From positions 15,001 to 39,000 of the forward strand of contig JBEQBT010000003.1 in assembly GCA_041639705.1 (NCBI GenBank): a DNA stretch of 24,000 nucleotides. The letters run 5' to 3'. Numbering within the stretch: position 1 is the stretch's first letter; each line of letters starts with the position of its first letter. Shown piece after piece: positions 4,575 through 23,073 of this stretch. The notes beneath the pieces were generated by a model. It worked only from the letters and a program-made list of their open reading frames with translations. It was not told where the DNA came from and did no database searches. This DNA is from Clostridiaceae bacterium. Its GTDB lineage: Bacteria; Bacillota; Clostridia; Clostridiales; Caloramatoraceae. The position numbers were made by a program, and so were the translations under genes.

Positions 4575-4577
4575 AAA

Positions 4578-7389: not shown

Positions 7390-7418
7390 TGTGAGGTGAC
7401 TTTAAAATTCACCTCACA
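7390..7418 (-). terminator. Terminator candidate for the sgc-type operon
   Basis: TGTGAGGTGA (7390-7399) pairs with TCACCTCACA (7409-7418) around a 9-nt loop. The hairpin overlaps the sgcE-like stop (7416-7414). The minus-strand tail is TTTCTTTAAAAC. Confidence 0.55.
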
Positions 7419-8034: not shown

Positions 8035-8824
8035 TTCTAACCTTCTCCATAAACTTTGATACCCTCTCTACATCTACCTCATTATAAAATTCCCCATCTC
8101 TTTTAAAGACAGTTCCCACAACTGCACCATCTGCTATTGAAAGCTGTTCTTCAACATTTTCCATTCTTACTCCTGTATTTACAAAGACAGGAGTATGTGG
8201 AATAACTTTTTTCACTCTCTTTAGTATCTGGGTATCGGTTGCAGTTCCCGCTGTTAAACCAGAAACACACAGTGCATCTGGATTATTATTAAAAACAGTT
8301 GATTTTGCAATATTTTCTATTTCCCTTTCTGCCATGTAGGTTGCAGCTTCCGGTACTATATTAAATAAAGCCTTAATATTCTCTCCACCTATATTATGTT
8401 TATGTCTAATGACTTCTCCGTAATTTGTGTTCCATAAACCAAAATCGCTGGCATAAACTCCTGTAAATATTTCTCTTACAAATTTTGCATCTACAGCTAC
8501 AGCAAGGTCAAAGGTCCTCATTGGGTCCCACAATACGTCAACTCCGTAGGGAACCTTTATATATTCCATAAGCTGACCAATTACTCTTGCCATTGCAGCA
8601 GTAGTTTCAGGATTAACCTTTGTAAGATATGGCAGGCTGAATTCATTTGAGAACATTACAGCATCTACCCCACCATTCTGCAATGCCAGTAAATCATTTT
8701 TTGCCCTGTCAATTACCTTTTTCATGCCTCCAACTTTGTCATAATCCGGATCTCCAGGCAAAGACAGAAAATGACACATTGCAATTATTGGTTTATCAGT
8801 GTTGAATACTTCCTTTATCCACAT
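8021..8824 (-). CDS. sgcQ: BtpA/SgcQ-family TIM-barrel protein
   Basis: 267 aa. Long stretches match my recollection of E. coli SgcQ: IIAMCHFLSLPGDPDYD, LQNGGVDAVMFSNEFSLPYLTKV, PETTAAMARVIGQLM, STVFNNNPDALCVSGLTAGT, ENVEEQLSIADG. It overlaps the EIIC gene by 29 nt. Confidence 0.85.
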   Translation of the reverse strand: MWIKEVFNTDKPIIAMCHFLSLPGDPDYDKVGGMKKVIDRAKNDLLALQNGGVDAVMFSNEFSLPYLTKVNPETTAAMARVIGQLMEYIKVPYGVDVLWDPMRTFDLAVAVDAKFVREIFTGVYASDFGLWNTNYGEVIRHKHNIGGENIKALFNIVPEAATYMAEREIENIAKSTVFNNNPDALCVSGLTAGTATDTQILKRVKKVIPHTPVFVNTGVRMENVEEQLSIADGAVVGTVFKRDGEFYNEVDVERVSKFMEKVRNARE

Positions 8825-10175
8825 AGTTTTTTAGCTCCCTTTTTTTTATGATATTTAATAGAAGATATACAAAACCAGCTACGAGTGCTATAATGAGTAC
8901 TATTCCAACTATCCCAAGCCTGCTTAACTGGTACAAAATATAGGCTATAGGATTACCTGCTGAAAGTGCTGTTACCTGTACTGCACCTTCAGGTATTTGT
9001 GTTGTGCCGCTCTTTGCAAACTCTGTTATCATAGGTGCAAAGAAGGATGCAATTGATAATACAATGGCCATCATTATTGTTCCACTTATAAGTGTCCTTA
9101 TAAAACTCCCCTTATGCATAACAGTTGCCATTGAAATAAAGAATGCTGTTGCTGCAAGATCTCCCAGTGGAAGAGTAGTATTTATAGGTATAATCATCGC
9201 TAGTACCAAGGCAATAGGAATAAGTAAAAGTCCAACTGCTACAGTAGTCGGAAGCCCTAATAATACAGCTGAGTCCAAGCCTATAAAGAATTCAGCTCCC
9301 TGATACTTTTTCTGCATAAATGCTCTTGTCTGCTCGCTTATTGGTACAAGTCCCTCCATCAATATTTTTGTAATTCTAGGAAGAAGGAACATTAAGGCAG
9401 CCATTGACATGCCAAGTTTTAGAGAAGCGCCGATTGAATATGATACTGAAAGGCCTAATATTATGCCTATAATCAATCCAAGGAAAACTGGTTCTGCAAT
9501 AACAGAGATAAAGCTTAGTTTTGAACTGTCTATATTACTCTCTTTATCCTTATTGCCCTTTGGTAGGAATAGGTCATAAAATTTATCAAGCAGGGCATAT
9601 ATTGGTACAGTACTTACTGCAAATCCCTGTGGTATAGAAATACCAGGTATGCCCAATTCCTCCTGAACATAGGGTGCTGTATAGTCAGCAATTTTCAATG
9701 ATAAAACACAGTGTGCTGCAGCTGCTATAAATCCATATATCAAGTTATTGGTTAACATGAATACTACTGCTCCGGTAAAAGCATAATGCCAGTAGTTCCA
9801 GATATCTATGTTTACTGTTCTAGTAAGCTTGAAGGTAAGCATCAATACATTAACTATGATTATGAATGGAATTATAAAGGACCCGATTGTTGTTGAAAAT
9901 GCCAATCCAGCAGCTGCTCCCCATCCTGTGTCAATAGTAGTCAGATTAAGATTAAATTTCTCAACGAAAATATTTGCTACAGGTCCAATATTGGTCCATA
10001 TCAATCCTAGAACCAAATCCAAACCAATCAATCCAATTCCTACTGTAATACCTGCCTTTAAGGCTTTAATCGGGTGCAGTCTTACAATAAGTCCAACTAT
10101 GGTTATCATTATAGGTATCATAACATATGAGCCAAGCCCACTGATGTAGTTGAATATTTCTTTAATAAAATCCAT
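8796..10175 (-). CDS. sgcC: PTS galactitol-family EIIC permease, SgcC/GatC-like
   Basis: 459 aa polytopic membrane protein. The ATG lies 1 nt after the EIIB stop, and its SD GAGGAGGG is embedded in the EIIB 3' end. Confidence 0.88.
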   Translation of the reverse strand: MDFIKEIFNYISGLGSYVMIPIMITIVGLIVRLHPIKALKAGITVGIGLIGLDLVLGLIWTNIGPVANIFVEKFNLNLTTIDTGWGAAAGLAFSTTIGSFIIPFIIIVNVLMLTFKLTRTVNIDIWNYWHYAFTGAVVFMLTNNLIYGFIAAAAHCVLSLKIADYTAPYVQEELGIPGISIPQGFAVSTVPIYALLDKFYDLFLPKGNKDKESNIDSSKLSFISVIAEPVFLGLIIGIILGLSVSYSIGASLKLGMSMAALMFLLPRITKILMEGLVPISEQTRAFMQKKYQGAEFFIGLDSAVLLGLPTTVAVGLLLIPIALVLAMIIPINTTLPLGDLAATAFFISMATVMHKGSFIRTLISGTIMMAIVLSIASFFAPMITEFAKSGTTQIPEGAVQVTALSAGNPIAYILYQLSRLGIVGIVLIIALVAGFVYLLLNIIKKRELKNYVDKGSIQH

Positions 10176-10176
10176 T

Positions 10177-10461
10177 TTAACCCTCCTCGCTTAAATAGGA
10201 TAATATCTTATTCTTCACCTCATCAATTCCAATACCTGTTATAAAGGGCAAACCAAGCACAGTAGGAATTTTATAATTCCCCTTAAGTGGCATAGAGGAT
10301 ACTATAATATTGCCCTGTTCTTCATATGACTTCACTTCTCTTAGACTGCATTGAATAATCCTGTGTTTAATATTCTTTTCAATAAGTAATTTTTCAATAT
10401 TACTTGTAATTATTGTTGAAGTCGCTACTCCGGCACCGCAAGCTACTATAATAGTTTTCAT
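10177..10461 (-). CDS. sgcB: PTS galactitol-family EIIB, SgcB/GatB-like
   Basis: 94 aa. N-terminal MKTIIVACGAGVATST has the active-site Cys in the Gat-type EIIB loop. Confidence 0.85.
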   Translation of the reverse strand: MKTIIVACGAGVATSTIITSNIEKLLIEKNIKHRIIQCSLREVKSYEEQGNIIVSSMPLKGNYKIPTVLGLPFITGIGIDEVKNKILSYLSEEG

Positions 10462-10464
10462 GCT

Positions 10465-11550
10465 TCACCTCCTTTTTCCATATTCAGTTTTATTATTGAA
10501 TTGATGAATAAAGATTTCGATTAACTTTGCAGCCTTCTCAGCGTCTGAAATGTCCATACATTCAATGGGTGTGTGAGTATATCTAGTTGGAATTGAGACG
10601 TTAATTACTGAAATACCCTCATTCTCAAATAATATATAGGCATTTTCTGTAACTACCCCTGTTGAAACTTCTCTTTGATAAGGTATATTATTATTTATGC
10701 AGATATTCTCAAGTGCATTTACCAATTTTATATCAGGAAGTACCCCTGCTAGGGTGCCTCTTCCATGAAAATTCATATATGTAAGTGCCGGCCCATGCCC
10801 AAGGGAAATATCATTGTAATCAAGATCTGGTGTGTCACATGCTGGAGTAATATCGATTCCTATTGTAATATCAGGCTTGATTTCCCTAATTACAGGCAAT
10901 ATCCCTCTGATATTAAATTCCTCCATTACACAGGCTACCAGGTAAACATTAGCCTCCAATTCTGTTTTCTTTTGTCTTTCTGCCAGCTCAAGCAAAATGC
11001 TGCAGCCTATCCTGTCATCTATAGCCTTTGAGCTTACTATTCTGTCAGTTAATTCTGTCCATGAATCATCAAAGGAAAACATGCCTCCAACATTTATTCC
11101 TCTTTTAATAACTGCTTCCTTTGAATCAGCCCCAATATCTATATACATTTCTTTTATCTGGGGTATTTTAAATTTGTTTTCTGCATTCATAAAATGATGA
11201 GCTTGAACCCCTATCAAGCCTTTTAACAATTTATTATCCATGCTTTGGACCTTTGTTCCAGGAAGTATTTGTGTATTTACACCTCCCAATCTCTCAAATC
11301 TCAAAAATCCGTTATTTTCAATTTTTCTAATAATAAATCCTATTTCATCCATGTGGGCAAAAACCATTATCTTTGGAAGCGTATCATCTTTAGTCTTAAA
11401 ATTACAAACAACATTTCCTATAGCATCTATGTATACATTCTCATTTGATTTTTTGAACTCTTCAAACATGTATTCTCCTATACTGTCCTCTCTTGACGAA
11501 AGCCCATTTAAGCAGCACAATTCCTTTAAGCTCTTCTTAATCATTAACAT
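10465..11550 (-). CDS. sgcX: M42-family metallopeptidase homologue (FrvX/SgcX/YpdE type)
   Basis: 361 aa. Motifs: MVFAHMDEIGF, SKAIDDRIGC, VMEEFNIRG, IPTRYTHTP. SD spacing favours the ATG at 11544 (MIKKSLKELCCLNG) over the track start at 11550. It overlaps the 3' end of the EIIA gene. Confidence 0.85.
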   Translation of the reverse strand: MLMIKKSLKELCCLNGLSSREDSIGEYMFEEFKKSNENVYIDAIGNVVCNFKTKDDTLPKIMVFAHMDEIGFIIRKIENNGFLRFERLGGVNTQILPGTKVQSMDNKLLKGLIGVQAHHFMNAENKFKIPQIKEMYIDIGADSKEAVIKRGINVGGMFSFDDSWTELTDRIVSSKAIDDRIGCSILLELAERQKKTELEANVYLVACVMEEFNIRGILPVIREIKPDITIGIDITPACDTPDLDYNDISLGHGPALTYMNFHGRGTLAGVLPDIKLVNALENICINNNIPYQREVSTGVVTENAYILFENEGISVINVSIPTRYTHTPIECMDISDAEKAAKLIEIFIHQFNNKTEYGKRR

Positions 11551-12004
11551 CCATCCCCTTTAATAATTGCTCAATATCTTCCTTTGAATTGCAGTATTTT
11601 ATTTTAAACAGCTGCCTAGACTGCAATAGATCAGCAAGCTGCTGCAATACGGAAATATGTTTGTTCTTATCTTTAAGTAGAAGGATAAATGAAACTTCAA
11701 CTTCAATCTCTTCATCAGGATTATCCATTCTATTAAACTTTATCTTCTCAGGTAATATTGCTATTACAATGCCTTCTCTTAAAACATATTCTGTTTCACT
11801 ATGTGGTATTGAAATATTAATACTTTTAGTAACCAAGCCTGTTGGAAATTCCTTTTCCCTCTTAATAATTTCTGTTTTATACTCTGGAACAACATATTCT
11901 TTTTCAATCAGATAATCAGAAGCCATGCTGAGAAAATTTACTTTGTCAGAATAGCTTTCTTTAATAACTATGCCCTTTTGAATTAATTCAATTAACTCTT
12001 TCAT
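11537..12004 (-). CDS. sgcA: PTS EIIA, mannitol/fructose (Ntr-type) family, SgcA-like
   Basis: 155 aa. Candidate phosphorylatable His in INISIPHSETEY. Size and position match sgcA. Confidence 0.8.
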   Translation of the reverse strand: MKELIELIQKGIVIKESYSDKVNFLSMASDYLIEKEYVVPEYKTEIIKREKEFPTGLVTKSINISIPHSETEYVLREGIVIAILPEKIKFNRMDNPDEEIEVEVSFILLLKDKNKHISVLQQLADLLQSRQLFKIKYCNSKEDIEQLLKGMDVND

Positions 12005-12013
12005 ATTAACTCC

Positions 12014-12787
12014 TTATCTGGCTGTTATTATATCCCTGCACTTTTCCATGATCTGGCTAACTTCTCTATCGGTTATCCGTTTATCTGTAATAATTTTGTT
12101 GATCTCCTCCAGTGAACATACCTTTGCAATTTTATGGCTGCTAAACTTTGTATAGTCTGCAAGAAGGATTATTTCCTTTCCTGATTCCATCATTTTCTGC
12201 TTTACCTCAACTTCATCGAAGTTGGCATTTGAAACTCCTTTTCTTATATCAACAGCATCTGCACTCAGAAAGAATAGATCAGCATTTACACATTCAAGTC
12301 CTTTTAAGGTCAAAAGACCAGATAAACTGAACATGCTATTTCTTAGCTGTCCTCCTAAAATAACTAAATGAACCGCTTTATTATTTGCCAGTGTCATTCC
12401 TACCTTTAAATCATTAGTTACTACTGTTATGTCAGAAAAGCTCCTACTCTCGCTTATTTTTTTTGCCAGTGCCAAGGTTGTAGTACCTGAATCTAAAATA
12501 ATAGTCATTCCATCCTTTATGTATTCTAATGCCTTAGCTCCTATTTTCTCTTTATATTCCTTTTGAGTTTTTTCCTTTTCCAGCTGTTTAGGCTCGTAGG
12601 TCAGCTTAAACTTATTGCTGACTGCACCGCCTGTAACTCTTACCAATTTACCTTCCTTTTCAAGTGTTGAAAGGTCTCTGTTTATTGTTGCCTTTGAGCT
12701 GCCTAATTTTTCCATAAATTCTTGAACTGTTACATTTCCTTTTTCATTTATGTAATCCAATATTAACATTCTTCTATGGGATAACAA
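12014..12787 (-). CDS. sgcR: DeoR/GlpR-family transcriptional regulator, SgcR-like
   Basis: 257 aa. N-terminal HTH (VTVQEFMEKLGSSKATINRDL) plus a DeoR C-terminal sensor domain. The TTG start at 12787 has a good SD (AGAGGTGA, 5 nt spacer). Confidence 0.85.
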   Translation of the reverse strand: MLSHRRMLILDYINEKGNVTVQEFMEKLGSSKATINRDLSTLEKEGKLVRVTGGAVSNKFKLTYEPKQLEKEKTQKEYKEKIGAKALEYIKDGMTIILDSGTTTLALAKKISESRSFSDITVVTNDLKVGMTLANNKAVHLVILGGQLRNSMFSLSGLLTLKGLECVNADLFFLSADAVDIRKGVSNANFDEVEVKQKMMESGKEIILLADYTKFSSHKIAKVCSLEEINKIITDKRITDREVSQIMEKCRDIITAR

Positions 12788-12837
12788 ATTATCACCTCTT
12801 TTGAGTCTATTTGAGCCATATTTGTTTTACTGATTAA

Positions 12838-12866
12838 ATAGTATCATTTCGGCTCAATAATAGCAA
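12838..12866 (-). promoter_or_regulatory. Promoter candidate for the sgc-type operon
   Basis: Minus strand: TTGCTA (12866-12861), 17 nt spacer, TACTAT (12843-12838), about 50 nt upstream of the sgcR-like start. The spacer contains a TTGAGCC motif (see findings). Confidence 0.4.
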
Positions 12867-13369
12867 TGAATTTTTTAAAGTTTTATTAATATTTTATTGT
12901 ATTTATTTGATGATTACACTCTTAGATATAATTTATACAGGTATCATCAAGAATAGGTTGCTTTTTTACAATATATGATACAATTTGAGCCATTATGTAT
13001 CTTTATAATATAAATTTAAATTTAAATTTAAAACTTAATACAAATAAATAAACTTTGAGTATATAAATTAGTTTGTGTGATTAATTAGCACTTAAAGTCA
13101 TATGTTGTGGTAAATCTTATTAATAATAAGGACGTCAAAAGCAAAAATATGATTCTGACGCCACATATTAAAGACTGTTCAATTTTTCAGCAATAAATTC
13201 TAAAAGCCTCACTTCTAAATATTAATCTCCACTTAGCAATGCTTTTCTCTGCCAAATCTATCTTGATAAACTCCCAGAAGGTTCTAATTGTTACACTTTG
13301 TTAGTCATACTTTGGAAGCCTTGTCCAGTTCCCCAGGGACTTAGGTTTACTTCCTATACCAGTGAACTC

Positions 13370-13424
13370 GTTCAGCTAAAGCTGAACATCGAGACTTCAG
13401 GTGGGGACTCTACCCCACCTGAAG
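13370..13424. repeat. Two further stem-loops downstream of the rpiB-operon terminator
   Basis: GTTCAGC-TAAA-GCTGAAC (13370-13387). CTTCAGGTGGGG (13395-13406) pairs with CCCCACCTGAAG (13413-13424): 12-bp G+C-rich stem, 6-nt loop, no U-tract on either strand. Confidence 0.6.
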
Positions 13425-13436
13425 CAAATAGTGGAA

Positions 13437-13460
13437 ACTCCACCTTATAGAAGGTGGAGT
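13437..13460 (-). terminator. Rho-independent terminator candidate for the aldolase-to-rpiB operon
   Basis: ACTCCACCTT (13437-13446) pairs with AAGGTGGAGT (13451-13460) around a 4-nt loop. On the minus strand TTTCCACTATTT follows. It begins 35 nt after the rpiB-like stop. Confidence 0.6.
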
Positions 13461-13494: not shown

Positions 13495-13935
13495 TTACTT
13501 TCCATTCTTTTCATACTCGAGAATTCTTCCCACTTTCGGGTCAGACCTTGAATTAGGAACATAGCTTACCCTCAGATATTCTTTCACCAGGCACTTAGCC
13601 AATTCAATCCCCGTTACCAGTGCTCCTATAGTAATAATATTTGCATTATTGCTAAGCTGTGCACGTTGCGCCTGATATACATCTGTTACAAGAGCCGCAT
13701 ATGCTCCTTCTACTTTATTCGCTGCTATACATACACCAATTCCAGTACCACAAAGCAATACTCCTCTTTCACATTCTCCTCCCGCAACTGCCTTTGCTAC
13801 ACTAATAGCTGTATTTGCATAAATCGGATCCTCACTTCCAAAATCCCTACACTCATTCCCCAAGCTTTCAATATATTGTATTAGAATTCTTTTGTAATCA
13901 GTTGCATTTGGATCACACCCAATCGCTATCTTCAT
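13495..13935 (-). CDS. rpiB: RpiB/LacA/LacB-family sugar-phosphate isomerase
   Basis: 146 aa. Motifs: MKIAIGCD, active-site loop LLCGTGIGVCIAANK, NNANIITIGA. SD AAGGAGGAG is upstream. The C-terminal third diverges from classical RpiB. Confidence 0.85.
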   Translation of the reverse strand: MKIAIGCDPNATDYKRILIQYIESLGNECRDFGSEDPIYANTAISVAKAVAGGECERGVLLCGTGIGVCIAANKVEGAYAALVTDVYQAQRAQLSNNANIITIGALVTGIELAKCLVKEYLRVSYVPNSRSDPKVGRILEYEKNGK

Positions 13936-14115
13936 CTCTTTCTCCTCCTTTACTTACCACTTAAATTGTCTTCAGCAACCTGCCCAGGAATTTATCACAT
14001 AATTTCCCTCTCTATTTATCAACCCATCAAGAAAAGAGGCGCAGTATATTCATGTCCATTATATCCTTGGATTCTGACATGATGCTGCACCCCTTTTTTA
14101 TATCCTTTATACCTG

Positions 14116-14757
14116 TCACATTTCCAGCATTTTTTGAATAAATGATGCCATTGTCTGAATAATAATATTGCAGCTGGTGGCTCCTGCATCCAGCACACCT
14201 CTGGAACGTTCCCCAAGACGGCTAGCCCTGCCAATCCTTGCTGCCATTCCTTTCGTAGACAGCCATCCTTCCTTTGATGCTTCTTTCATAAGCTCTAATG
14301 CTTCTTTAAAATCTTTTCCTTCCTGCAATGCATTGCAATAGCTTTCTTTTGCAGGAATAAGTACATCCAGAAGGGTTTTATCACCTCTTTTTGCAGATCC
14401 AATATCCTGAACTCCATCAAGGGCGGCAGTAATCATCTTTTCAAAAACATATGCATCAATTTCTTCCTCTTTTGCACTGGCTTCTGCCATTTCCTCAAAA
14501 AACACACCATATAAAGGCCCCATGGAACCACCGATGTCTTCCATAAGTGTATTGCTCAAAATGGAAAGCCCTTCCCACATGGAATAATTTTTTCCTTCCA
14601 ATTTTTTATGACACAAGGTAAAACCTTTGTTCATATTAATACCATGGTCACCATCCCCGATTTTTCCATCAATTTCACTTAGATAGTCTTTATTCTCTTG
14701 AATTTTTGCAATCAATTCTAATACTATGGATCCTGCTTTAGAATTATATATTTTCAT
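14116..14757 (-). CDS. dhaL: Dihydroxyacetone-kinase family, ADP-binding subunit DhaL
   Basis: 213 aa. Contains the diagnostic LSEIDGKIGDGDHGINM (D-x3-GDGDHG) nucleotide/Mg site. Confidence 0.85.
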   Translation of the reverse strand: MKIYNSKAGSIVLELIAKIQENKDYLSEIDGKIGDGDHGINMNKGFTLCHKKLEGKNYSMWEGLSILSNTLMEDIGGSMGPLYGVFFEEMAEASAKEEEIDAYVFEKMITAALDGVQDIGSAKRGDKTLLDVLIPAKESYCNALQEGKDFKEALELMKEASKEGWLSTKGMAARIGRASRLGERSRGVLDAGATSCNIIIQTMASFIQKMLEM

Positions 14758-14772
14758 ATTCTACCGCCTTTC

Positions 14773-15771
14773 TCATAGCTGTTTTAACCCAACTGAATTC
14801 ACTGGCATATCCAAACATTCCTTCAGTTCATCATCCAGTTTCATCACCGTTAAGGTAATGCCCATCATTTCCAGTGACGTAAAATAATTTCCCACATATG
14901 CTTTATATACAATGATTCCTTTCTCTTCCAATACTTCTGCTACTCTATTGTAAACAATATATTGTTCCATAACTGGAGTTGCACCAAGCCCTGAAAGCAG
15001 CACTGCAACTTCATCTCCATTAGCAAATGGCAGATCTGGAAGAATCAGATCCAGCATTTCAACTGCAATCTCATCAGCTGTCTTCAAAGGCTCCACTTTT
15101 ATTCCAGGTTCCCCATGATGCCCAATTCCTACTTCCATTGTTCCGTCTTCAATTTGAAAATTTGGATGTCCCACAGCTGGAATCGTGCAAGGTGCGGTTC
15201 CAATTCCTACAGAACGAGTATTGTCAATTGCCTTCTGTGCAGTAATAATAACATTATCCAGGTCAGCTCCCATCGCTGCCTTAGCACCACCGACTTTCCA
15301 CAGCAGTACTTCACCAGCTACTCCACGGCGTTTCTCTGCTTCCGTTTTAGGAGCAGAAGCACAGTCATCATTTGCTACTACTGTCTTTACTGTAATTCCC
15401 AGCTTTTTCGCATTTCGGATAGCCATCTTAACATTCATATTATCGCCTGCATAATTTCCATAAAGGCATGCAACTCCTTTTCCCGCATCTGCTGCCTTTA
15501 TAGCATCAGTAAAGGCAGCAGCAGTTGGTGAAGAAAATATCTCTCCTACGGCAACAGCATCACACATATTTTCACCAATATATCCTATAAATGCCGGCTT
15601 ATGCCCGGAGCCTCCACCTGTCACAATTCCTACTTTTCCTGCAACAGGTGCCTTTTTATATTTTACAACCCTTGGATTATCAGTTGCTTCAACCAGATCC
15701 TTTTGGGCTTTCAAAAATCCTTTAAGCATATCTTCTACTACAAAATCCGGATTATTTATTATTCTATTCAT
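14773..15771 (-). CDS. dhaK: Dihydroxyacetone-kinase family, substrate-binding subunit DhaK
   Basis: 332 aa. Motifs: TGGGSGHKP, and GIGHHGEPG with the hemiaminal-forming His region. Confidence 0.9.
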   Translation of the reverse strand: MNRIINNPDFVVEDMLKGFLKAQKDLVEATDNPRVVKYKKAPVAGKVGIVTGGGSGHKPAFIGYIGENMCDAVAVGEIFSSPTAAAFTDAIKAADAGKGVACLYGNYAGDNMNVKMAIRNAKKLGITVKTVVANDDCASAPKTEAEKRRGVAGEVLLWKVGGAKAAMGADLDNVIITAQKAIDNTRSVGIGTAPCTIPAVGHPNFQIEDGTMEVGIGHHGEPGIKVEPLKTADEIAVEMLDLILPDLPFANGDEVAVLLSGLGATPVMEQYIVYNRVAEVLEEKGIIVYKAYVGNYFTSLEMMGITLTVMKLDDELKECLDMPVNSVGLKQL

Positions 15772-15791
15772 ATTCTAACTCCTCTTCTACA

Positions 15792-16649
15792 TCACAATGT
15801 TTCTGCAATTGCCTTCAAATTTGAAAGTCCTTTTACAGCAAGTTCTTCTCCGGTATCTGCAAATTTGCGCCAAATTGCACAGTTGCCTGCAAGCTCTTCA
15901 AATGCAGGATCAAATGATTCTATTGTAAGAGGACCATCGTATCCAATATCCGCTACTGCCTGAAAAAACTCCTTAAAAGGAACAAGACCGGTTCCAGGAA
16001 TACCTCTGTCATTTTCATTCACATGTATATATCCCAAATATTCTTTTCCGCAGGTCTTTACTGCACCTGAAAAGCTTTTCTCCTCTCGAATCATATGGAA
16101 GCAGTCTAGATGAACCTTTACATTATCCAGTTCCACAGCTTTGCAAAAACGAACTGCATCCTCTCCGATATTCAAAAAATGGGTTTCAAAGCGGTTTACA
16201 CATTCGACGCAGATCATAACATTTCCATTTTCTTTTGCATATGCGGCAACCTCTTTCATATTTGCAACAGCCCAATCCCATTCCTGTTCTGTACGAGGCT
16301 TTCTGGTCAGATATCCCCATGCTGCATAATTAACCCCGCCTAAAATAGGTGCTTTCAATTCATTACAAATATCAATACACTTTTTCATTGCATCAACAGC
16401 TGCTTTTCTTATTTCTGCATCTGGAGAGATTGGATTTGTTTTCAGGGTAAGCGTTGTAGTACAAACACAGTCAATTCCTACTCTATCCAACTCTTTTTTT
16501 ACTGCTGCCACCGGAAATGTATATGGATTAGAGATTGCAAAATCAATTACCTCAAAACCTATGGACTTTGCTTTCTCAATAATCCACAAATCCCTTTCAC
16601 TGAAATTTTCTGACCAGATAAATGAATCTACACCAAATTTAAAATACAT
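15792..16649 (-). CDS. Xylose-isomerase-like TIM-barrel enzyme, ketose 3-epimerase / sugar-phosphate isomerase family
   Basis: 285 aa. The E-D-H-E metal-ligand pattern is seen in ICVECVNRFE, HLDCFHMIREE and HVNENDRGIPGTG, co-linear with D-psicose/D-tagatose 3-epimerases as I recall them. The sequence does not tell whether the substrate is free or phosphorylated. Confidence 0.8.
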   Translation of the reverse strand: MYFKFGVDSFIWSENFSERDLWIIEKAKSIGFEVIDFAISNPYTFPVAAVKKELDRVGIDCVCTTTLTLKTNPISPDAEIRKAAVDAMKKCIDICNELKAPILGGVNYAAWGYLTRKPRTEQEWDWAVANMKEVAAYAKENGNVMICVECVNRFETHFLNIGEDAVRFCKAVELDNVKVHLDCFHMIREEKSFSGAVKTCGKEYLGYIHVNENDRGIPGTGLVPFKEFFQAVADIGYDGPLTIESFDPAFEELAGNCAIWRKFADTGEELAVKGLSNLKAIAETL

Positions 16650-16664
16650 ATGAACCCCCTCCTC

Positions 16665-17312
16665 TTAAAACAAGACTAATATATCTTCCGGTACCCTCAT
16701 AATATAGTCGGTACCATTATCACTTAGCTCTTCCTCCCCTCGGAATCCCCAAAGTACTCCACCAGTAGCCATTCCGGCATTTTTTCCTGTGTGAATGTCA
16801 GCGCCTGAATCTCCAATATATATTACCTCCTCAGGTGCCAAACCCATCATGCCTGCTATCTCAAGAGCCGTTTGGGGATCAGGTTTTTTAGGAATCCCTT
16901 CCCGCTCTCCAAATACTCCCGCAAATTTGATCTGGGGGAAAAACTTATTAATAAGATGATTTGTGTAATCGGTTCTTTTATTGGAATTTACACCTATTTT
17001 AACTCCCTTTTTATAAAGGATTTCAAGCATATCTGTAATACCATCATAGGGTGCAGTTTTATTCATATAGTTTTTATCATATGTCTCCAGGAACATTTTA
17101 AGCCCTTCAGAAATCTTATCATCATCACGGCAATCCTCTGGAAAGCTGACCTCTAGAAGGTTGCGAAATCCCTTTCCGATTTTAAGCTTATAATCCTCAC
17201 AGCAGTGCTCCGAATATCCATATGTTGCTAGTACATGATTCACACTGTAGGATAAATCCTTAAGTGTATCAAGAAGTGTGCCATCCAAATCAAAAATTAC
17301 ACCTTTAAGCAT
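16665..17312 (-). CDS. HAD-superfamily phosphatase (phosphoglycolate-phosphatase-like subfamily)
   Basis: Motif I VIFDLDGTLLDT, motif II GVNSNK, motif IV GDSGADIHTGKNAG. The track starts at TTG 17339. I prefer ATG 17312 (MLKGVIFDLDGT), which gives the usual short N-terminus, but both candidate SDs are weak. Confidence 0.8.
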   Translation of the reverse strand: MLKGVIFDLDGTLLDTLKDLSYSVNHVLATYGYSEHCCEDYKLKIGKGFRNLLEVSFPEDCRDDDKISEGLKMFLETYDKNYMNKTAPYDGITDMLEILYKKGVKIGVNSNKRTDYTNHLINKFFPQIKFAGVFGEREGIPKKPDPQTALEIAGMMGLAPEEVIYIGDSGADIHTGKNAGMATGGVLWGFRGEEELSDNGTDYIMRVPEDILVLF

Positions 17313-17546
17313 TTTAGTATTGCATCCTTTCTTGTTCAAAAAGCCCTAAACGCAATACCGTATAGAGCCTTTTAGCTGATTTATAATTGCCAAGTCAATT
17401 CTTATATATGACCTGCTGATCCATATTAACCATTTATTAGCTTGTCCAATACCTTGGAGATACTGCTTCGCCTATACCAGGGAATTAATTTTTTCTCTAT
17501 TTATCCTGCTAATAGAATAAATTGTTAATCAGTCAGAAACTATCAT

Positions 17547-18461
17547 TTATAATTCTGTAATTGCAAAAACTACCTTAATTGGCTTGTTTTCAAAATTAAC
17601 CAGTTGATATTTAGTTCCGGCTGGCAGGAAAAATGAGTCTTCTGGTTCCAGCACATAACTTTCTTGCATATCAACAAGATTAACAGTTACTGGTCCATCA
17701 ATACAATATAACGCTCCATCACCTTTATGGGAATCAGGATCTGAGCAACGTGGTCCATATCCACCTGCAGGAAGAATCATCTCTCCCATATGTCCATAGT
17801 TATTGCTTGATATAAATCTCAAAAGCATTGGATGTGCTGTTCCATGTACGTTATTTAATTTTTCGAATTCACGTACTGCATACACAGCTCCTGTCTTTCT
17901 GGCTTCTTCCGGTTCCACCGGCCAAGCGCCAATATCGTCCGTACAACCCTGTCTTGAAATATCATGAATCTTGCCCTTCATGTTAGGTAATTGATCATTA
18001 TTCTGCCCTTTATAAAACTTAGTATCACTATCTTCTGGAATGACAGTTGGGGGAATTGATTCACTCCAAGCCTTTGGAGTTATAAAGTAAAGGATTCTGG
18101 CTTTTTCTGCTGAAAAATTATGGCAGCAGTGCCATGCACCTTCTGGCATGTAAAGCCCTTCTCCGGTTTCAAGATATGCAAACTGTCCATTTCCGCTTCT
18201 TTGAACTACCGGGCCATTTAAAATATAATAGGTTTCATCTCCTGGATGAATGTCAAGAGGTGCAAATACACCACCTGGCCCTAATTCATAGATTCCAAGC
18301 ATAAATGTGTCAGTTGTAACTATTGTAAATGTATTATCTGAAGTAAATGCATTATTAGGTGGATATAGTGCTGTAGAATAATCATGTTTGCGAATCAACA
18401 TTGGCCTTTTTTCATCTTTTTTAAACGGAAAATTTTCCAATATATCAAATAATTTTGCCAT
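17547..18461 (-). CDS. Two-domain cupin (bicupin) protein of unknown function
   Basis: 304 aa. Two cupin-like cores are visible: PLDIHPGDETYYILNGP...GLYMPEGAWH and SDPDSHKGDGALYCIDGP...FFLPAGTKYQ. Neither has the canonical G-x5-H-x-H-x3,4-E motif. SD GGAGG is upstream. Confidence 0.65.
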   Translation of the reverse strand: MAKLFDILENFPFKKDEKRPMLIRKHDYSTALYPPNNAFTSDNTFTIVTTDTFMLGIYELGPGGVFAPLDIHPGDETYYILNGPVVQRSGNGQFAYLETGEGLYMPEGAWHCCHNFSAEKARILYFITPKAWSESIPPTVIPEDSDTKFYKGQNNDQLPNMKGKIHDISRQGCTDDIGAWPVEPEEARKTGAVYAVREFEKLNNVHGTAHPMLLRFISSNNYGHMGEMILPAGGYGPRCSDPDSHKGDGALYCIDGPVTVNLVDMQESYVLEPEDSFFLPAGTKYQLVNFENKPIKVVFAITEL

Positions 18462-18479
18462 TATAAAACCTCCATAACT

Positions 18480-19358
18480 TTACTTTCCATTTTTAAATGT
18501 AGAAATAACATTTTTTGCATAATCCTTCATAAATACATAAGCCTCTTCCTGTAGTTCATGGTATGGAATCTTTCCATTTGTTTCTGCAATTCTATCACCA
18601 ACATACTTTGTTGTTGCTTTTGCCATATATGAATAATAATTTATTTTAGAACATCCTGCATTTATTGCTTTCTTTACCTGATCAAACTCCACACCGGATG
18701 CTCCATGCATTACCACGCGGCAGTCCTTTGGCAGTGCATCGCGGATTGCAGAAACTCTGTCAATATCAAGTACTGGAGGTTCCGCATAGATTCCATGCAT
18801 TGTGCCGAAGCATACTGCAAGCGCATCACATCCAGTTTCTTTTGCAAATATTTTTGCTTCCTTAGGATCCGTAAAGAACTTTTTGATATCTTGATTGGTA
18901 AGTACACGGCTTTCTGCATCTCCATGGCTGTCTTCCTCAGTAGATGCCATTATACCCAGTTCTGCTTCTACTGTAATATCTAATTCATGTGCTATTTTAA
19001 CAAATTCCTTTACTCTTCTTACATTCTCTTCAAATGGTAAAGCACTGCAGTCATACATAATTGAAGGAAATCCAATACGGATAGCTCTCATAACAAAAGT
19101 GTAGTTAGTAGCATGATCCAAATGAACACATACTGGAACTGATGCTTCTTTTGCATATTTCAGCATTTCTATGCCTATTCTCTCCAATGGTATTACTGTA
19201 TCATGAACTTCTGCATGATCAATTATGATTGGTGTATTCAACTCTTCAGCTGCTCCAATCACTGCACGAAGTGTCTCTACATTTGGAGTATTAATACATG
19301 GTATTGCATATTTTTCTTTTTCTGCTATTTCTAGAATTTGTCTCATATTTACTAACAT
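18480..19358 (-). CDS. Class II (metal-dependent) ketose-bisphosphate aldolase family (FbaA/GatY/KbaY-like)
   Basis: 292 aa. Zn-ligand motifs: VCVHLDHATN, FGTMHGIY, VMHGASGV. N-terminal KYAIPCINT is typical of the family. SD AGGAGAG is upstream. Confidence 0.85.
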   Translation of the reverse strand: MLVNMRQILEIAEKEKYAIPCINTPNVETLRAVIGAAEELNTPIIIDHAEVHDTVIPLERIGIEMLKYAKEASVPVCVHLDHATNYTFVMRAIRIGFPSIMYDCSALPFEENVRRVKEFVKIAHELDITVEAELGIMASTEEDSHGDAESRVLTNQDIKKFFTDPKEAKIFAKETGCDALAVCFGTMHGIYAEPPVLDIDRVSAIRDALPKDCRVVMHGASGVEFDQVKKAINAGCSKINYYSYMAKATTKYVGDRIAETNGKIPYHELQEEAYVFMKDYAKNVISTFKNGK

Positions 19359-19561: not shown

Positions 19562-19590
19562 GTTATATCATTTTAATTTGGCAATGTCAA
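19562..19590 (-). promoter_or_regulatory. Sigma-A-type promoter candidate for the aldolase-to-rpiB operon
   Basis: Minus strand: TTGACA (19590-19585), 17 nt spacer, TATAAC (19567-19562). This implies a leader of about 195 nt before the ATG at 19358. Confidence 0.5.
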
Positions 19591-19799: not shown

Positions 19800-20852
19800 T
19801 TAAAAACTAAGAGCATTCTCTTCTGATTCTTCAGTAGTTACATCAACATTGCGCTTTAATAGAACAAGCATTAATGCAGTAACAAGACTTGATAATGCGA
19901 ATACGCCCATCCAAACAAGAGGTTTATTAGCAAGGAATATTACGAATAATCCACCGTGAGGAGCTTGTAATGTTAATCCTGCAGCATAAGATAAAGCTGC
20001 ACCAAATGCGCTGCCTACCATCAAGGAAGGTATTACTCTACCAGGATCTGCAACAGCATAAGGAATTGCAAATTCAGTTATCATTGCAAAACCACCTATA
20101 ACACATCCTCCAAGACCTTTTCTCTCTAAGTTAGTAAACTTCTTCTTTGCGATTAACATAGCAATTGCAATACCCATCGGAGGAGCCATTGAAGCTACGA
20201 AATTTGCAGCCATTGGTCCCCAGTTATTTGCTGATGAAGCTGCTAAAGCAAAGGCATATGCTGCTTTATTAACAGGACCACCCATGTCAAATGCTAACAT
20301 TGCTCCCTGAATTAATCCAAGAATTAATAAGCTGCCACCATTTAAGCCATTAAGTAAATCGGTCATAGTAGTGTTAAGCCATGTAACTGGAATTCCTATA
20401 ATATAAGTCATGATAACCCCAACCAGGAATGTACCAAATAAAGGTATAATAAGTGTAGGCAGAAGTGATTTAATGCTTACAGGAAGCTTGATTTTCTTAA
20501 GAGCTACTACAATATATCCAGCAATAATACCACCAATCATTGCTCCTAAAAATCCAGAGCCTTGGTTACTTGCAATCATACCCGCAACAAATCCTGGAGC
20601 AATACCTGGTCTGTCAGCAAGTGAATATGAAATGTATCCGGCAAGAGCTGGTATCATAAGTCCGAAAGCTACTTTACCCCATGTGAACATACTAGCTGCA
20701 AATGATTCTGTTTTAAAAACGAAAATACCTCCAAATGCAAAACCAAGTGCGATAAGTATTCCTCCTGGGATAACAAATGGAATCATGTACGAAACGCCTG
20801 TAAGCAATGCCCTTTTGATGTCATTTCCTACTTCCTTAAAAGATTTACTCAT
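19800..20852 (-). CDS. PTS fructose-family EIIC permease
   Basis: 350 aa polytopic protein. N-terminus ALLTGVSYMIPFVIPGGILIALGF and the Gly-rich loops are typical of FruA-type IIC domains. SD AAGGAGG is upstream. Confidence 0.88.
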   Translation of the reverse strand: MSKSFKEVGNDIKRALLTGVSYMIPFVIPGGILIALGFAFGGIFVFKTESFAASMFTWGKVAFGLMIPALAGYISYSLADRPGIAPGFVAGMIASNQGSGFLGAMIGGIIAGYIVVALKKIKLPVSIKSLLPTLIIPLFGTFLVGVIMTYIIGIPVTWLNTTMTDLLNGLNGGSLLILGLIQGAMLAFDMGGPVNKAAYAFALAASSANNWGPMAANFVASMAPPMGIAIAMLIAKKKFTNLERKGLGGCVIGGFAMITEFAIPYAVADPGRVIPSLMVGSAFGAALSYAAGLTLQAPHGGLFVIFLANKPLVWMGVFALSSLVTALMLVLLKRNVDVTTEESEENALSF

Positions 20853-20953: not shown

Positions 20954-21277
20954 TTACTGGTTATTTTCAATGATTTTCATAGCTTTTTCAAAAACAGACT
21001 CTGGATCTTTAATCATTTCATGAGGTGATGACTGAAAAATTTTTTCCTTTACTTTTGAAAATCTCTCTACTGCTGTTATGTTCACATCATTTGCGAATAT
21101 TATTAAATCAGCACTTTGTATATCAGTGCTTGACAATTGATTCTCAATGCCCAAAGCTCCCTGAATTTCCACCTTTACCTGGAATCCCTTTTTCTTTGCT
21201 ATCTTCTTTATTGCTTCTGCAGACATATAGGAATGAGCAATCCCTGTCGCACATGAAGTAACTGCAACTATTTTCAT
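20954..21277 (-). CDS. PTS fructose-family EIIB
   Basis: 107 aa. MKIVAVTSCATGIAHSYMSAEAI carries the Fru-type IIB active-site Cys loop. Confidence 0.85.
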   Translation of the reverse strand: MKIVAVTSCATGIAHSYMSAEAIKKIAKKKGFQVKVEIQGALGIENQLSSTDIQSADLIIFANDVNITAVERFSKVKEKIFQSSPHEMIKDPESVFEKAMKIIENNQ

Positions 21278-21302: not shown

Positions 21303-21788
21303 CTATTCACTTAACATTGATTCTGCTGTTTTAATAGCAGAAATAAGATCCTCATAATTTTGAGACTTGTATATTTTTTCAACAAATTCATCATATATAA
21401 GTAAACGGGATAAAGTAGATAAAATTCTTATGTAATCATTTGATGAAACACTTTTAGGAATAGCCAGCATAAAAATAATTTTAGCTGTTCCTACTTCCCC
21501 ATTGGATTCATAAAGAACTCCATTTGAACAACGACAAAATGCAATTGTAGGGCTTGTAACTGTCTCACTTTTCCCATGTGGTATTGCTATATAATTTCCC
21601 ATATATGTGGATCCCATATCTTCTCTCTCGTATAAAGACTTTAAAAACTCCTCTTCGGATTTAACCTTACCTGCTTTAAACAAAAGTGAAACCATATGAT
21701 GAAATAAATCATCTTTATCATTAAAACTACCATCATTTAAATCAACTATATTTGGTAATAATACTTCGGATATATGAAAGTCAAACAT
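21303..21788 (-). CDS. PTS EIIA, fructose/mannitol (Ntr-type) family
   Basis: YIAIPHGKSE is the active-site His region. The track start (GTG 21800) abuts the SD GGAGG with no spacer. The ATG at 21788 (MFDFHISEV), 11 nt after GGAGG, is more plausible. Confidence 0.8.
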   Translation of the reverse strand: MFDFHISEVLLPNIVDLNDGSFNDKDDLFHHMVSLLFKAGKVKSEEEFLKSLYEREDMGSTYMGNYIAIPHGKSETVTSPTIAFCRCSNGVLYESNGEVGTAKIIFMLAIPKSVSSNDYIRILSTLSRLLIYDEFVEKIYKSQNYEDLISAIKTAESMLSE

Positions 21789-21940
21789 TAATATGTGCAC
21801 CTCCTATTTCATGTAGTTTCCTCATGTAGTAATTTACACCATGTATTAGTAACTTGCATTTTAGAACATTTCTTACATATTAACCAGCATAACAATATCC
21901 CCTTTCTCAAAATAAAATTTTAAATGTTCCAAATGCATTT

Positions 21941-22251: not shown

Positions 22252-23073
22252 TCATTCTATTACCGGTGCAACCATAACATTAATTCCAGCGGCACGAATT
22301 GATTCTATAACTTCTGGTGAGACACCATCATCAGTTATTATGTAATCTACTCTTTTTAATGGTGCTACTGGCATAACACAAACACGTCCTATTTTAGTAT
22401 GATCTGCAACAATTATTAATTGGGAACATGACTCAATCATTTTTTTCTTTATTGATGCAACTGCAGGAACCATTGAATTAGCTACCGTGAGACCTTGCTG
22501 CAAAGATATGCCATCAATTCCTAAAATGAGCTTGTGAGGCATAAATCTGCTAACAAAATCATTTGTTAGGTCTCCAATTAACACACAATTTTCCTTATAG
22601 ACTATTCCTCCTGCCAAGTATACAGCTGAATCTTTTATAGAAATTAAATCATTCAACATATAAAAGGAATTTGTAATAATTGTTAATCCGCTTTTATCAC
22701 CTAAATTCTTTGCTACACATTGTGTGGTGCTCCCGCCATCAATCATAATAGTATCACCATTATTTATTAAAGAAGCAGTCAGTTTACCTATTGCATACTT
22801 CTCAGCCTGATTTTTTTCAATCCTCAAGTTTATATCCAATATATTTCTGACCATTTCCTTTCCATCTTCAGCATTTAAATCATTAAGTAAAATTGCACCG
22901 CCATGGGTACGTTTGATTAATCTACGAGATTCTAATTCTGCCAAGTCCATGCGAACTGTAGACCTGCTCATACCAAACTCATCTGCTAATTCATTAACAA
23001 GTACCTTTTTCTTTTCTAAAATTTTTTTATAAATCAATTCAAGTCGTTCTTCAGGAAATATTTTTTTATCCAT
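22252..23073 (-). CDS. DeoR/GlpR-family transcriptional regulator
   Basis: 273 aa. HTH VLVNELADEFGMSRSTVRMDL plus a DeoR C-terminal sugar-phosphate sensor domain. SD AAGGAGGGAG is upstream. Confidence 0.85.
   Translation of the reverse strand: MDKKIFPEERLELIYKKILEKKKVLVNELADEFGMSRSTVRMDLAELESRRLIKRTHGGAILLNDLNAEDGKEMVRNILDINLRIEKNQAEKYAIGKLTASLINNGDTIMIDGGSTTQCVAKNLGDKSGLTIITNSFYMLNDLISIKDSAVYLAGGIVYKENCVLIGDLTNDFVSRFMPHKLILGIDGISLQQGLTVANSMVPAVASIKKKMIESCSQLIIVADHTKIGRVCVMPVAPLKRVDYIITDDGVSPEVIESIRAAGINVMVAPVIE

Follow-up and report, generated by a model that had tools for sequence, protein, structure and literature searches.

The stretch of DNA analysed here (the window) comprises 24,000 nt of contig JBEQBT010000003.1 (assembly GCA_041639705.1, positions 15,001–39,000) from a Clostridiaceae bacterium and is AT-rich, with a G+C content of about 30–42%. 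It carries a run of seven genes on the minus strand, encoding a class II aldolase, a bicupin, a HAD phosphatase, a ketose-3-epimerase-like barrel, the kinase subunits DhaK and DhaL and an RpiB-family protein. Immediately before them on that strand are the genes for a complete fructose-type phosphotransferase system (PTS) and a DeoR-family regulator. A previous interpretation of this DNA (the sequence-only reading) had listed the seven co-directional open reading frames (ORFs); each is present at the coordinates it had been given, and comparison with Pfam and NCBIfam confirmed its family. Our view, which is tentative and which we would rate as somewhat less than an even chance, is that the cluster may encode a PTS-dependent catabolic system in which a ketose phosphate would be cleaved to a triose phosphate and a small free sugar, the latter being salvaged by erythrulose-type chemistry; substrates and reactions are both predicted, from gene families, residue signatures and gene neighbourhood. 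The genes and signals concerned, in window positions, are these.

22252–23073, minus strand: DeoR/GlpR-family regulator of the PTS and catabolic unit (NCBIfam DeoR-family matches)
21303–21800, minus strand: PTS EIIA, fructose/mannitol type (PF00359; TIGR00848)
20954–21277, minus strand: PTS EIIB, fructose type (PF02302; TIGR00829)
19800–20852, minus strand: PTS EIIC, fructose family (TIGR01427)
19745–19699, minus strand: terminator-like hairpin and U-run after the IIC gene (-16.6 kcal/mol, z = -3.9, then UUUUUUG)
19590–19562, minus strand: promoter-like site TTGACA-17 nt-TGnTATAAC upstream of the aldolase gene, read from the sequence
18480–19358, minus strand: class II aldolase (PF01116)
17547–18461, minus strand: bicupin (two Cupin_2 domains, no named family)
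About 17374–17337, minus strand: hairpin and U-run between the bicupin and HAD genes (gap of 235 bp), a possible internal or partial terminator (RNA fold z = -2.8)
16665–17339 as ORF, likelier start 17312, minus strand: HAD-IA phosphatase, phosphoglycolate-phosphatase-like (PF13419)
15792–16649, minus strand: ketose-3-epimerase-like TIM barrel (AP_endonuc_2)
14773–15771, minus strand: DhaK subunit of a DAK-family kinase (Dak1, PF02733)
14116–14757, minus strand: DhaL nucleotide-binding subunit (Dak2, PF02734)
13495–13935, minus strand: RpiB-family protein (RpiB/LacAB family match; residue signature)
13462–13435 and 13424–13395, minus strand: two tandem strong hairpins after the RpiB gene (-40.6 kcal/mol, z = -6.8)

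The seven genes had been read as a single transcription unit with one promoter (19562–19590) and one terminator (13437–13460). The promoter-like sequence is present and convincing by eye, but in a consensus scan of the region promoter-like and terminator-like sites were no more frequent than in shuffled sequence, and a single promoter is not established. The presumed terminator is indeed the first of the two strong hairpins behind the RpiB gene, but further hairpins follow the IIC gene and lie in the bicupin–HAD gap. Because the first of these has a U-run and stands directly after the IIC gene, the PTS genes of this genome probably form a separate upstream transcription unit; transcription of the five genes behind the aldolase–bicupin pair may be partly independent of that pair, and co-transcription of all seven is plausible. 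For the HAD gene ATG at 17312 is a likelier start than TTG at 17339, and an independent gene call on an identical contig gives a product of 215 aa. An Rfam scan of the window found nothing.

For comparison 78 genome loci were fetched, the window proteins were mapped onto them and all neighbouring ORFs were clustered; the denominator of 79 loci used here includes a few duplicate fetches and truncated contigs. The aldolase gene lies beside the bicupin gene in 68 of the 79 loci, and EIIC, EIIA and EIIB are found in 64, 62 and 57 of them. The conserved core is thus a fructose-type PTS, an aldolase of the type that yields dihydroxyacetone phosphate (DHAP) and the bicupin. Other genes recur less regularly: a PRD/Mga-type regulator, DhaL and the RpiB-family gene (46 loci each), split DhaK (43), fused DAK (14), the epimerase-like barrel (41), HAD-IA (26), Cof-type HAD (12), an Enzyme I paralogue (16) and a triosephosphate-isomerase paralogue (10), with a DAK-family kinase of one kind or the other next to or near the bicupin gene in roughly 57. 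The usual order, seen for example in Anaerostipes hadrus SSC/2, is aldolase-IIA-IIB-IIC-bicupin-(HAD)-RpiB-(barrel)-DhaK-DhaL. As the PTS genes stand between the aldolase and bicupin genes in most genomes, the link to the adjacent fructose-type PTS that the sequence-only reading suspected is real, and the recurrence of this gene grouping in dozens of genomes shows that it is not due to chance. The seven-gene order found in the window is only one of many arrangements. Besides A. hadrus, the cluster occurs in many Lachnospiraceae, Erysipelotrichaceae, Coriobacteriia, Negativicutes and propionibacteria, and an index of public assemblies lists the identical A. hadrus bicupin sequence in 35,332 blocks.

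The variants show which parts can be exchanged. A minimal locus in Propionimicrobium consists only of a SorC regulator, the aldolase, IIA, IIB, IIC and the bicupin, and one in Oceanobacillus of a PRD regulator, IIBC, IIA, a class I DhnA/DeoC aldolase and the bicupin; an aldolase of this class I type replaces the class II enzyme twice, in Oceanobacillus and in one Moorellaceae genome. In Lientehia hominis and its relatives a ribose-type ABC transporter and an FGGY kinase, the latter encoded directly upstream of the aldolase and bicupin, replace the PTS, which argues for phosphorylation followed by cleavage. Three elements are therefore invariant: transport accompanied by phosphorylation, an aldolase of the DHAP type and the bicupin. 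The means of phosphorylation and the fold of the aldolase can each be exchanged. These ABC-type loci resemble lsrACDB with its FGGY kinase, the DhnA/DeoC aldolases of the two exceptional loci are in the LsrF family, the Propionimicrobium locus is headed by a SorC-type regulator and a fructose PTS has been linked to autoinducer-2 uptake in pneumococcus, all of which would fit an Lsr-like processing of autoinducer-2 (DPD) with phosphorylation by PTS or FGGY kinase, an LsrG-like bicupin and an LsrF-like aldolase releasing DHAP and acetate. We consider this very improbable, as the FGGY kinases score 123–166 against the LsrK cut-off of 528 and the DhnA aldolases 77–160 against the LsrF cut-off of 297, no LsrG-type protein was detected, and the DAK, epimerase and DerI-like genes described below would go unexplained.

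All three PTS subunits of the window pass the TIGRFAM cut-offs for the fructose type (EIIA, TIGR00848, 107.5 against 103.5; EIIB, TIGR00829, 100.5 against 76.85; EIIC, TIGR01427, 331.5 against 157.55), and orthologues of the DeoR regulator with 57% identity head equivalent clusters in Alkalibaculum (L041) and Moorellaceae (L070). The PTS lineage is not that of A. hadrus: IIC is 79–80% identical to its counterparts in loci L045 and L064 and about 50% identical to that of Anaerostipes. The Enzyme I (PtsI) paralogue lies within the cluster in its 16 loci, many of them from Lachnospiraceae (e.g. L006 8113–9960), and in at least six loci a short ORF without annotation (about 90 aa), which may encode HPr, stands just before it, between the IIC and bicupin genes; this suggests a dedicated phosphorelay for the cluster PTS.

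The window aldolase matches PF01116 at 264 bits and passes only the generic TIGR00167 subfamily (221.1 against 215.6), reaching no NCBIfam equivalog cut-off for FBA, GatY or KbaY (best 197–219 bits against 343–543). With GatY, KbaY and FbaA it has in common the fold, the family, the zinc His positions (HLDH, MHG and HGASG align with His83, His180 and His208 of AgaY) and the catalytic Asp and Glu of AgaY, but NYYSY and (Y/W)H(E/D) replace the NxxT(E/D) and DP(R/K) of those enzymes. The motifs K(I/V)NYYSY and (Y/W)H(E/D) are common to all cluster aldolases, the latter standing in every one of them where a C-terminal DP(R/K) was looked for; a canonical paralogue in locus L056 has NYATE and FDPKK at the two places. 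In FBA, GatY and KbaY the DP(R/K) position supplies the Arg or Lys that holds the distal phosphate, and its loss is consistent with a monophosphate substrate. The window enzyme belongs to a distinct subfamily of class II DHAP-dependent aldolases, and we propose that it acts as a ketose-1-phosphate aldolase.

The bicupin had been taken as an extra without an assigned step, a description overturned by the locus comparison, which puts it in the invariant core with the aldolase and the transporter. Its N-terminal cupin domain has a canonical two-motif metal site (D70, H72, E76 and H111; D-x-H-x3-E ... H) with Asp in place of the first His, and the C-terminal domain lacks a full metal site. The cupin motifs are invariant among the homologues, as are numerous Lys and Arg residues. 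With 46 representatives at E <= 1e-30 among 1.84 billion, the family is small; its close members, 70–91% identical, are from Lachnospiraceae, Erysipelotrichaceae, Christensenellales, Negativicutes (Propionispora, Pectinatus), Oceanobacillus, Enterococcus, Tetragenococcus and Coriobacteriia, and homologues with about 50–55% identity occur in propionibacteria and Cellulomonas. In their sources they are labelled 'cupin domain-containing protein' or, by generic automatic annotation, mannose-6-phosphate isomerase or gentisate 1,2-dioxygenase, and a sequence-profile search found no solved structural relative. Conservation is unusually strong: between the window and Anaerostipes faecalis the bicupin is 86% identical, IIC 50% and IIA 42%, and across the bicupin loci the bicupin is 82–88% identical where IIA is about 40% and IIC 50–60%, which could arise from an oligomeric or complex interface or from recent horizontal transfer. 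A clue to function comes from Rhizobium, Sinorhizobium and Agrobacterium, where conjugative plasmids carry a split bicupin (41–43% identity) in an operon with a PepD-like aminoacyl-histidine dipeptidase, a sugar ABC transporter, an AraD-like Aldolase_II protein, a ribulokinase-like FGGY kinase and a LysR regulator (L088 10489–18936, Rhizobium etli plasmid pRetIE4771a; L089, an Agrobacterium plasmid). As the split bicupin occupies the place of L-arabinose isomerase (AraA) beside the ribulokinase-like and AraD-like genes, this operon supports a free-aldose isomerase function for the family; its dipeptidase hints at a sugar–amino acid conjugate as substrate there. The variation in fold of the associated enzyme (class II, DhnA/DeoC or AraD-like) further implies that the bicupin acts after an aldolase reaction of the DHAP type or an epimerase reaction, irrespective of the fold that catalyses it. 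We therefore propose, from context and the metal site, that the window bicupin may be a metal-dependent aldose–ketose isomerase acting on the free aldolase product.

The order of the two core enzymes could also be the reverse. In that case the bicupin would isomerize or epimerize a sugar phosphate in the manner of phosphomannose isomerase, household phosphofructokinase would make the bisphosphate as in E. coli galactitol catabolism, an ordinary bisphosphate aldolase would cleave it and the DAK module would serve a separate dihydroxyacetone or triose function. The label 'mannose-6-phosphate isomerase' used by some sources points this way, the many invariant Lys and Arg residues could hold a phosphate, the E. 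coli gat and aga operons also lack a kinase of their own, and tagatose-bisphosphate aldolases of both class I and class II exist. We nevertheless think it improbable, given that the aldolase subfamily lacks the DP(R/K) motif of the canonical paralogue, that a DAK kinase so often accompanies the bicupin, that only one FGGY kinase is encoded in the ABC-type loci, immediately before the aldolase, and that AraA, whose place the rhizobial bicupin takes, acts on a free sugar.

Cleavage before isomerization, as we prefer, directs attention to the enzymes that would handle the free fragment, among them the RpiB-family protein. Alignments to PDB entries 1nn4 (E. coli) and 3he8 (C. thermocellum) supplied the sequences of canonical RpiB. 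For the tetrulose pathways the comparison used partial genes, each covering about 133 codons from the start: lerK, lerI and derI1 of M. smegmatis and eryC of Brucella (PMC10733421 Supplementary Data 3). The diagnostic positions are as follows.

Canonical RpiB (E. coli, C. thermocellum): 9–10, D-H; 66 and 68, C and T; 99–100, H-N; 133, 134 and 137, R, H and R
M. smegmatis DerI1 fragment: 9–10, D-D; 66 and 68, C and T; 99–100, S-N
PDB 5ifz: 9–10, D-S; 66 and 68, C and T; 99–100, S-N; 133, 134 and 137, R, S and N
Window RpiB: 9–10, D-P; 66 and 68, C and T; 99–100, S-N; 133, 134 and 137, R, S and K

Roughly 48 cluster-linked RpiB-family ORFs all have Ser at the positions of His99 and His134 and Lys at that of Arg137, and His10 is absent from all but one of them. 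The window protein thus departs from canonical RpiB in its residue pattern and also scores below the TIGR01120 cut-off (99.6 against 138.65). It does not reach NF051858, the rhizobial-type equivalog for D-erythrulose-4-phosphate isomerase, either (132.2 against 240), but the characterized DerI1 fragment likewise fails (124.5), indicating that the model is lineage-limited; PDB 5ifz, which shares the window signature and several motifs, passes the NCBIfam D-erythrulose-4-phosphate isomerase equivalog (249 against 240). In RpiB His99 helps to open the furanose ring, a step that an acyclic tetrose phosphate would not need. Since the DerI-type signature, with Ser at His99, replaces the canonical pattern, the cluster RpiB-family genes look like erythrulose-4-phosphate isomerases rather than ribose-5-phosphate isomerases.

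The remaining accessory genes come in two forms, with the RpiB-family gene usual in both: form A, that of the window, combines split DhaK/DhaL with the ketose-3-epimerase-like barrel, and form B combines fused DAK with the triosephosphate-isomerase paralogue. The barrel (41 loci) and the triosephosphate-isomerase paralogue (10 loci) co-occur in none. Form B has the same set of families (DAK, triosephosphate isomerase, RpiB) as the characterized LerK, LerI and DerI of M. smegmatis (Huang et al. 2015), by which L-erythrulose is converted to erythrose-4-phosphate, a route set out in PMC10733421. LerK is 61–64% identical to the DAK of the Propionibacterium loci and 55% to that of Cellulomonas, and DerI1 is 71% identical to the RpiB of the Cellulomonas cluster (first 133 residues in each case). 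LerI had been described in the sequence-only reading as a xylose-isomerase-like TIM barrel; its translated sequence is instead that of a triosephosphate-isomerase-family protein (GTSWKMNK ... GHSERR; PMC10733421 Supplementary Data 3), and it matches only the triosephosphate-isomerase paralogues of related loci. The window barrel would therefore replace LerI without being its homologue, and the triosephosphate-isomerase paralogues beside DAK and RpiB genes may be tetrulose-phosphate isomerases.

For the barrel itself the best NCBIfam match is D-psicose 3-epimerase (175.8 bits, below the equivalog cut-off of 300) and the best PDB matches are D-psicose and D-tagatose 3-epimerases at about 140 bits. 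Like these enzymes it keeps all metal and catalytic residues (E150, E156, D183, H186, H209, R215 and E244 in the alignment to 3vni), but besides falling short of the equivalog it differs from them in having Asp for Tyr6 of the hexose-binding pocket and in a cellular context without free hexulose. As a ketose 3-epimerase needs a stereocentre at C3, its substrate should be at least a tetrulose, and we propose that it may be an epimerase or isomerase of erythrulose or erythrulose phosphate. The kinase genes lie between the barrel and RpiB genes, so that the DAK kinase adjoins the isomerases. DhaK finds its best NCBIfam match (427 bits) in the two-domain DAK subfamily PRK14479, which we take to be ATP-dependent, DhaL passes its equivalog (TIGR02365, 175.7 against 138.3), and the window holds no DhaM-like ORF of the kind that would mark a PTS-dependent DhaKLM system. 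The presence of DhaK and DhaL, and the equivalog status of the latter, would also suit an ordinary glycerol/dihydroxyacetone operon in which the aldolase is a spare glycolytic copy; the lack of a glycerol dehydrogenase, DhaM or glycerol facilitator, the identity of the invariant partners (a sugar PTS, a divergent aldolase and the bicupin) and the minimal loci devoid of DhaKL make this scarcely credible.

The route we favour, cleavage of a ketose phosphate with salvage of a free fragment, would run as follows. The fructose-type PTS would import a fructose-like ketose and phosphorylate it at C1, and the class II aldolase would split the ketose-1-phosphate into DHAP and an unphosphorylated aldose, which the bicupin would isomerize to a short ketose, most likely erythrulose. 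The epimerase-like barrel would then set the configuration (L- to D-erythrulose, or the same step on the phosphate), DhaK/DhaL would phosphorylate the sugar and the DerI-like RpiB would convert D-erythrulose-4-phosphate to D-erythrose-4-phosphate; in form B genomes a fused DAK and an isomerase of the triosephosphate-isomerase family would stand in for DhaKL and the epimerase. The general logic of the sequence-only reading (aldolase cleavage to DHAP and a free fragment, recapture by a DAK kinase, isomerization to erythrose-4-phosphate) largely holds and is strengthened by the DerI-type signature and by the related loci with the LerK/LerI/DerI set of families. That reading had not recognized the seven-gene combination as a described pathway, and in the full-text literature collection searched there was neither a description of the cluster nor a paper assigning a substrate to it; one candidate, a paper on anaerobic riboflavin degradation in Lachnospiraceae, proved to concern an unrelated class I aldolase neighbourhood. 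D-apiose was considered as a substrate and dropped, apulose-4-phosphate being reportedly cleaved by a transketolase and not by an aldolase.

A tetrose fragment would imply a seven-carbon ketose of fructose-like configuration at C3 and C4. Sedoheptulose and L-galacto-heptulose, the latter the ketose isomer of the heptose of lipopolysaccharide, share the C3–C5 configuration of fructose; cleavage would release D-erythrose from the former and L-threose from the latter. Isomerization of L-threose would lead to L-erythrulose, the substrate of LerK/LerI, which would explain the need for an epimerase or a triosephosphate-isomerase-type enzyme. A heptulose substrate, cleaved as heptulose-1-phosphate to DHAP and free tetrose, would make the bicupin the first dedicated natural tetrose isomerase, acting on erythrose or threose; we regard it as doubtful, chain length, which the sequence-only reading had put at about C6–C7, being the weakest part of the proposal.

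With a substrate one carbon shorter the chemistry changes. The PTS would deliver a ketohexose-1-phosphate (from L-sorbose, D-tagatose, D-psicose or fructose), the aldolase would release DHAP and glyceraldehyde, the bicupin would turn (L-)glyceraldehyde into dihydroxyacetone, DhaKL would make DHAP of it and the triosephosphate-isomerase paralogue would lead on to glyceraldehyde 3-phosphate. Minimal loci with PTS, aldolase and bicupin would then need only a household dihydroxyacetone kinase, fused DAK and the triosephosphate-isomerase paralogue do occur together in 10 loci, and an FSA gene with a triosephosphate-isomerase-like gene lies nearby in Tetragenococcus. Ketohexoses are also far commoner than heptuloses, and L-sorbose, which Anaerostipes reportedly uses, is fructose-like at C3 and C4. 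Such a scheme, however, gives no role to the RpiB-family gene of 46 loci or its DerI-type signature, nor to a 3-epimerase with intact catalytic residues, since dihydroxyacetone has no C3 stereocentre, and D-glyceraldehyde would require no isomerase because DAK enzymes phosphorylate it directly; we judge it rather unlikely.

At the other extreme the PTS might import erythrulose itself. The resulting erythrulose-1-phosphate would be cleaved to DHAP and formaldehyde by an aldolase acting as the long-sought erythrulose-1-phosphate formaldehyde-lyase (EC 4.1.2.2), the isomerases would lead in parallel to erythrose-4-phosphate and the DAK kinase would recapture free erythrulose. L-Erythrulose mimics C1–C4 of fructose, clusters in Propionibacterium and Propionimicrobium are flanked by LerK-, LerI- and DerI-like genes, and in one ABC-type locus a hexulose-6-phosphate synthase, a SIS-domain protein and RPE lie beside the aldolase and bicupin. 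The chemistry has precedent in class II FbaA, which forms L-erythrulose-1-phosphate from DHAP and formaldehyde, and in the cleavage of erythrulose-1-phosphate proposed for erythritol catabolism in Propionibacterium pentosaceum (PMC10733421). Against this, aldolase cleavage and isomerization would be redundant routes, the kinase would be superfluous after phosphorylation by the PTS, the rhizobial bicupin context with its ribulokinase-like and AraD-like genes points to isomerization of a free aldose, and the invariant bicupin would have no role. We know of no cupin that handles formaldehyde, and the scheme as a whole seems to us a poor prospect.

Several observations also weigh against the route that we prefer. 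Over the first 133 residues the window DhaK is only 37% identical to LerK and the window RpiB 36% to DerI1, and the triosephosphate-isomerase paralogues are not told apart by identity (37–42% to LerI, 37–38% to an E. coli TpiA sequence). An AlphaFold2 model of the bicupin (mean pLDDT 92.7) matched only generic bicupins, mostly dioxygenases and decarboxylases, in a Foldseek search of the PDB. In the minimal loci, which lack the accessory module, either genes elsewhere in the genome must process the bicupin product or this product is a widespread metabolite, for example dihydroxyacetone. Heptuloses in free form are not common as nutrients, and yet the cluster is prevalent in gut metagenomes, as the number of index blocks given above attests. 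RpiB, a triosephosphate-isomerase paralogue and DhaKL reportedly cluster in a dihydroxyacetone/pentose-phosphate locus of Listeria, and co-occurrence alone is therefore no proof of tetrulose chemistry. Finally, the route leaves the HAD phosphatase without a role; this is the least conserved of the seven genes (26 of the 79 loci), its product reaches no NCBIfam equivalog cut-off, and its possible roles are those of a sedoheptulose-bisphosphatase-type enzyme or of a safety valve under sugar-phosphate stress.

Some further genes were seen around the related clusters. A protein of about 400 aa (unk406, 406 aa) is encoded upstream of the ABC-type aldolase–bicupin loci and, in Faecalicatena orotica, adjoins a split bicupin (L051 1734–2954; L083 499–1704; L075 11069–12265); it has no Pfam or NCBIfam match, its motifs (FSKFxDY..FHxHP; GWYxPAGVLH; YEPQ) resemble type I phosphomannose isomerase by eye, and its PDB matches are not significant (E = 0.2–2). 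An ORF upstream of the RpiB gene in L006 turned out to encode an unrelated isochorismatase-like protein. In Tetragenococcus solitarius (L044 2407–3776) an FSA/TalC gene, above its equivalog cut-off, and one for an archaeal-type triosephosphate isomerase lie just upstream of the RpiB-aldolase-PTS-bicupin-DhaKL cluster.

The window itself holds a second complete PTS operon (7414–12787, minus strand), the gene content of which we take to be that of the E. coli sgc operon.

12014–12787, minus strand: DeoR regulator
11537–12004, minus strand: EIIA
10465–11550, minus strand: M42 aminopeptidase, SgcX/FrvX type
10177–10461, minus strand: Gat-type EIIB, 94 aa
8796–10175, minus strand: Gat-family EIIC
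8021–8824, minus strand: BtpA/SgcQ-family protein
7414–8034, minus strand: RPE-family epimerase, SgcE type

Between its DeoR gene and the hairpins behind the RpiB gene lies an AT-rich stretch of about 600 bp (12788–13394) containing no ORF of at least 80 aa and, around 13010–13040, short 'taaattt' repeats. Elsewhere, on the plus strand, the window encodes a type VII toxin–antitoxin pair (4161–5000), consisting of an MntA adenylyltransferase antitoxin and a HepT RNase toxin both above their NCBIfam cut-offs, and a stand-alone 5'-3' exonuclease of 340 aa (5321–6343) resembling the N-terminal domain of DNA polymerase I.

Current annotation probably overlooks a genuine nutrient, of dietary or microbial origin, that serves as the substrate of the cluster; identifying it would give functions both to the uncharacterized bicupin family, with its unusual conservation, and to the divergent subfamily of aldolases. 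A. hadrus is a major butyrate producer of the human gut, and if the proposed route is true abundant human gut commensals would possess a heptulose route and an erythrulose to erythrose-4-phosphate module; if our reading of the RpiB-family protein holds, many 'RpiB' annotations in Firmicutes are probably tetrulose-phosphate isomerases. In a published cell-free pathway erythrose is isomerized by a weak side activity of L-rhamnose isomerase (PMC12012885); that pathway, and likewise the erythrulose-monophosphate formaldehyde cycle (PMC10733421), would benefit directly from an isomerase dedicated to tetroses.

Set beside known systems, the cluster combines features of several. With the L-fucose and L-rhamnose pathways and with mammalian fructolysis (ketohexokinase, aldolase B and triokinase) it would share the splitting of a ketose-1-phosphate into DHAP and a free aldehyde, and with fructolysis the recapture of the fragment, there by a DAK-family triokinase. 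It differs from all three in that phosphorylation is by a PTS, the aldolase is a class II enzyme of the FBA/GatY family and not of the FucA/RhaD type, and the fragment would apparently be isomerized by the bicupin before its phosphorylation and then pass to a DerI-like isomerase. In contrast to the GatY and KbaY systems the cluster has neither a partner protein like GatZ or KbaZ nor a second kinase of its own. The resemblance to LerK-LerI-DerI lies in a DAK kinase followed by isomerases that are here predicted to end at erythrose-4-phosphate, and in the His-to-Ser signature of RpiB as in DerI1; the window, however, has no gene of the triosephosphate-isomerase family, the ketose-3-epimerase-like barrel standing where LerI would, entry is by PTS and aldolase rather than from a polyol (no EltD-type tetritol dehydrogenase was found in the window cluster or among the recurrent neighbours of the bicupin loci) and the invariant bicupin is added. 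The Brucella erythritol steps catalysed by EryC, EryH (TpiA2) and EryI (RpiB) employ the same three superfamilies (AP_endonuc_2, triosephosphate isomerase and RpiB) on tetrulose phosphates, although the first 133 residues of EryC have no detectable similarity to the window barrel, the cluster lacks the EryA kinase and EryB dehydrogenase, and the barrel and the triosephosphate-isomerase paralogue are alternatives here but consecutive steps in Brucella. Having no polyol dehydrogenase, a different entry, a different isomerase fold at the place of LerI and an added, uncharacterized enzyme family, the cluster belongs to neither group and resembles a hybrid in which the logic of the ketose-1-phosphate aldolase pathways is joined to that of the tetrulose phosphate module known from M. 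smegmatis and Brucella.

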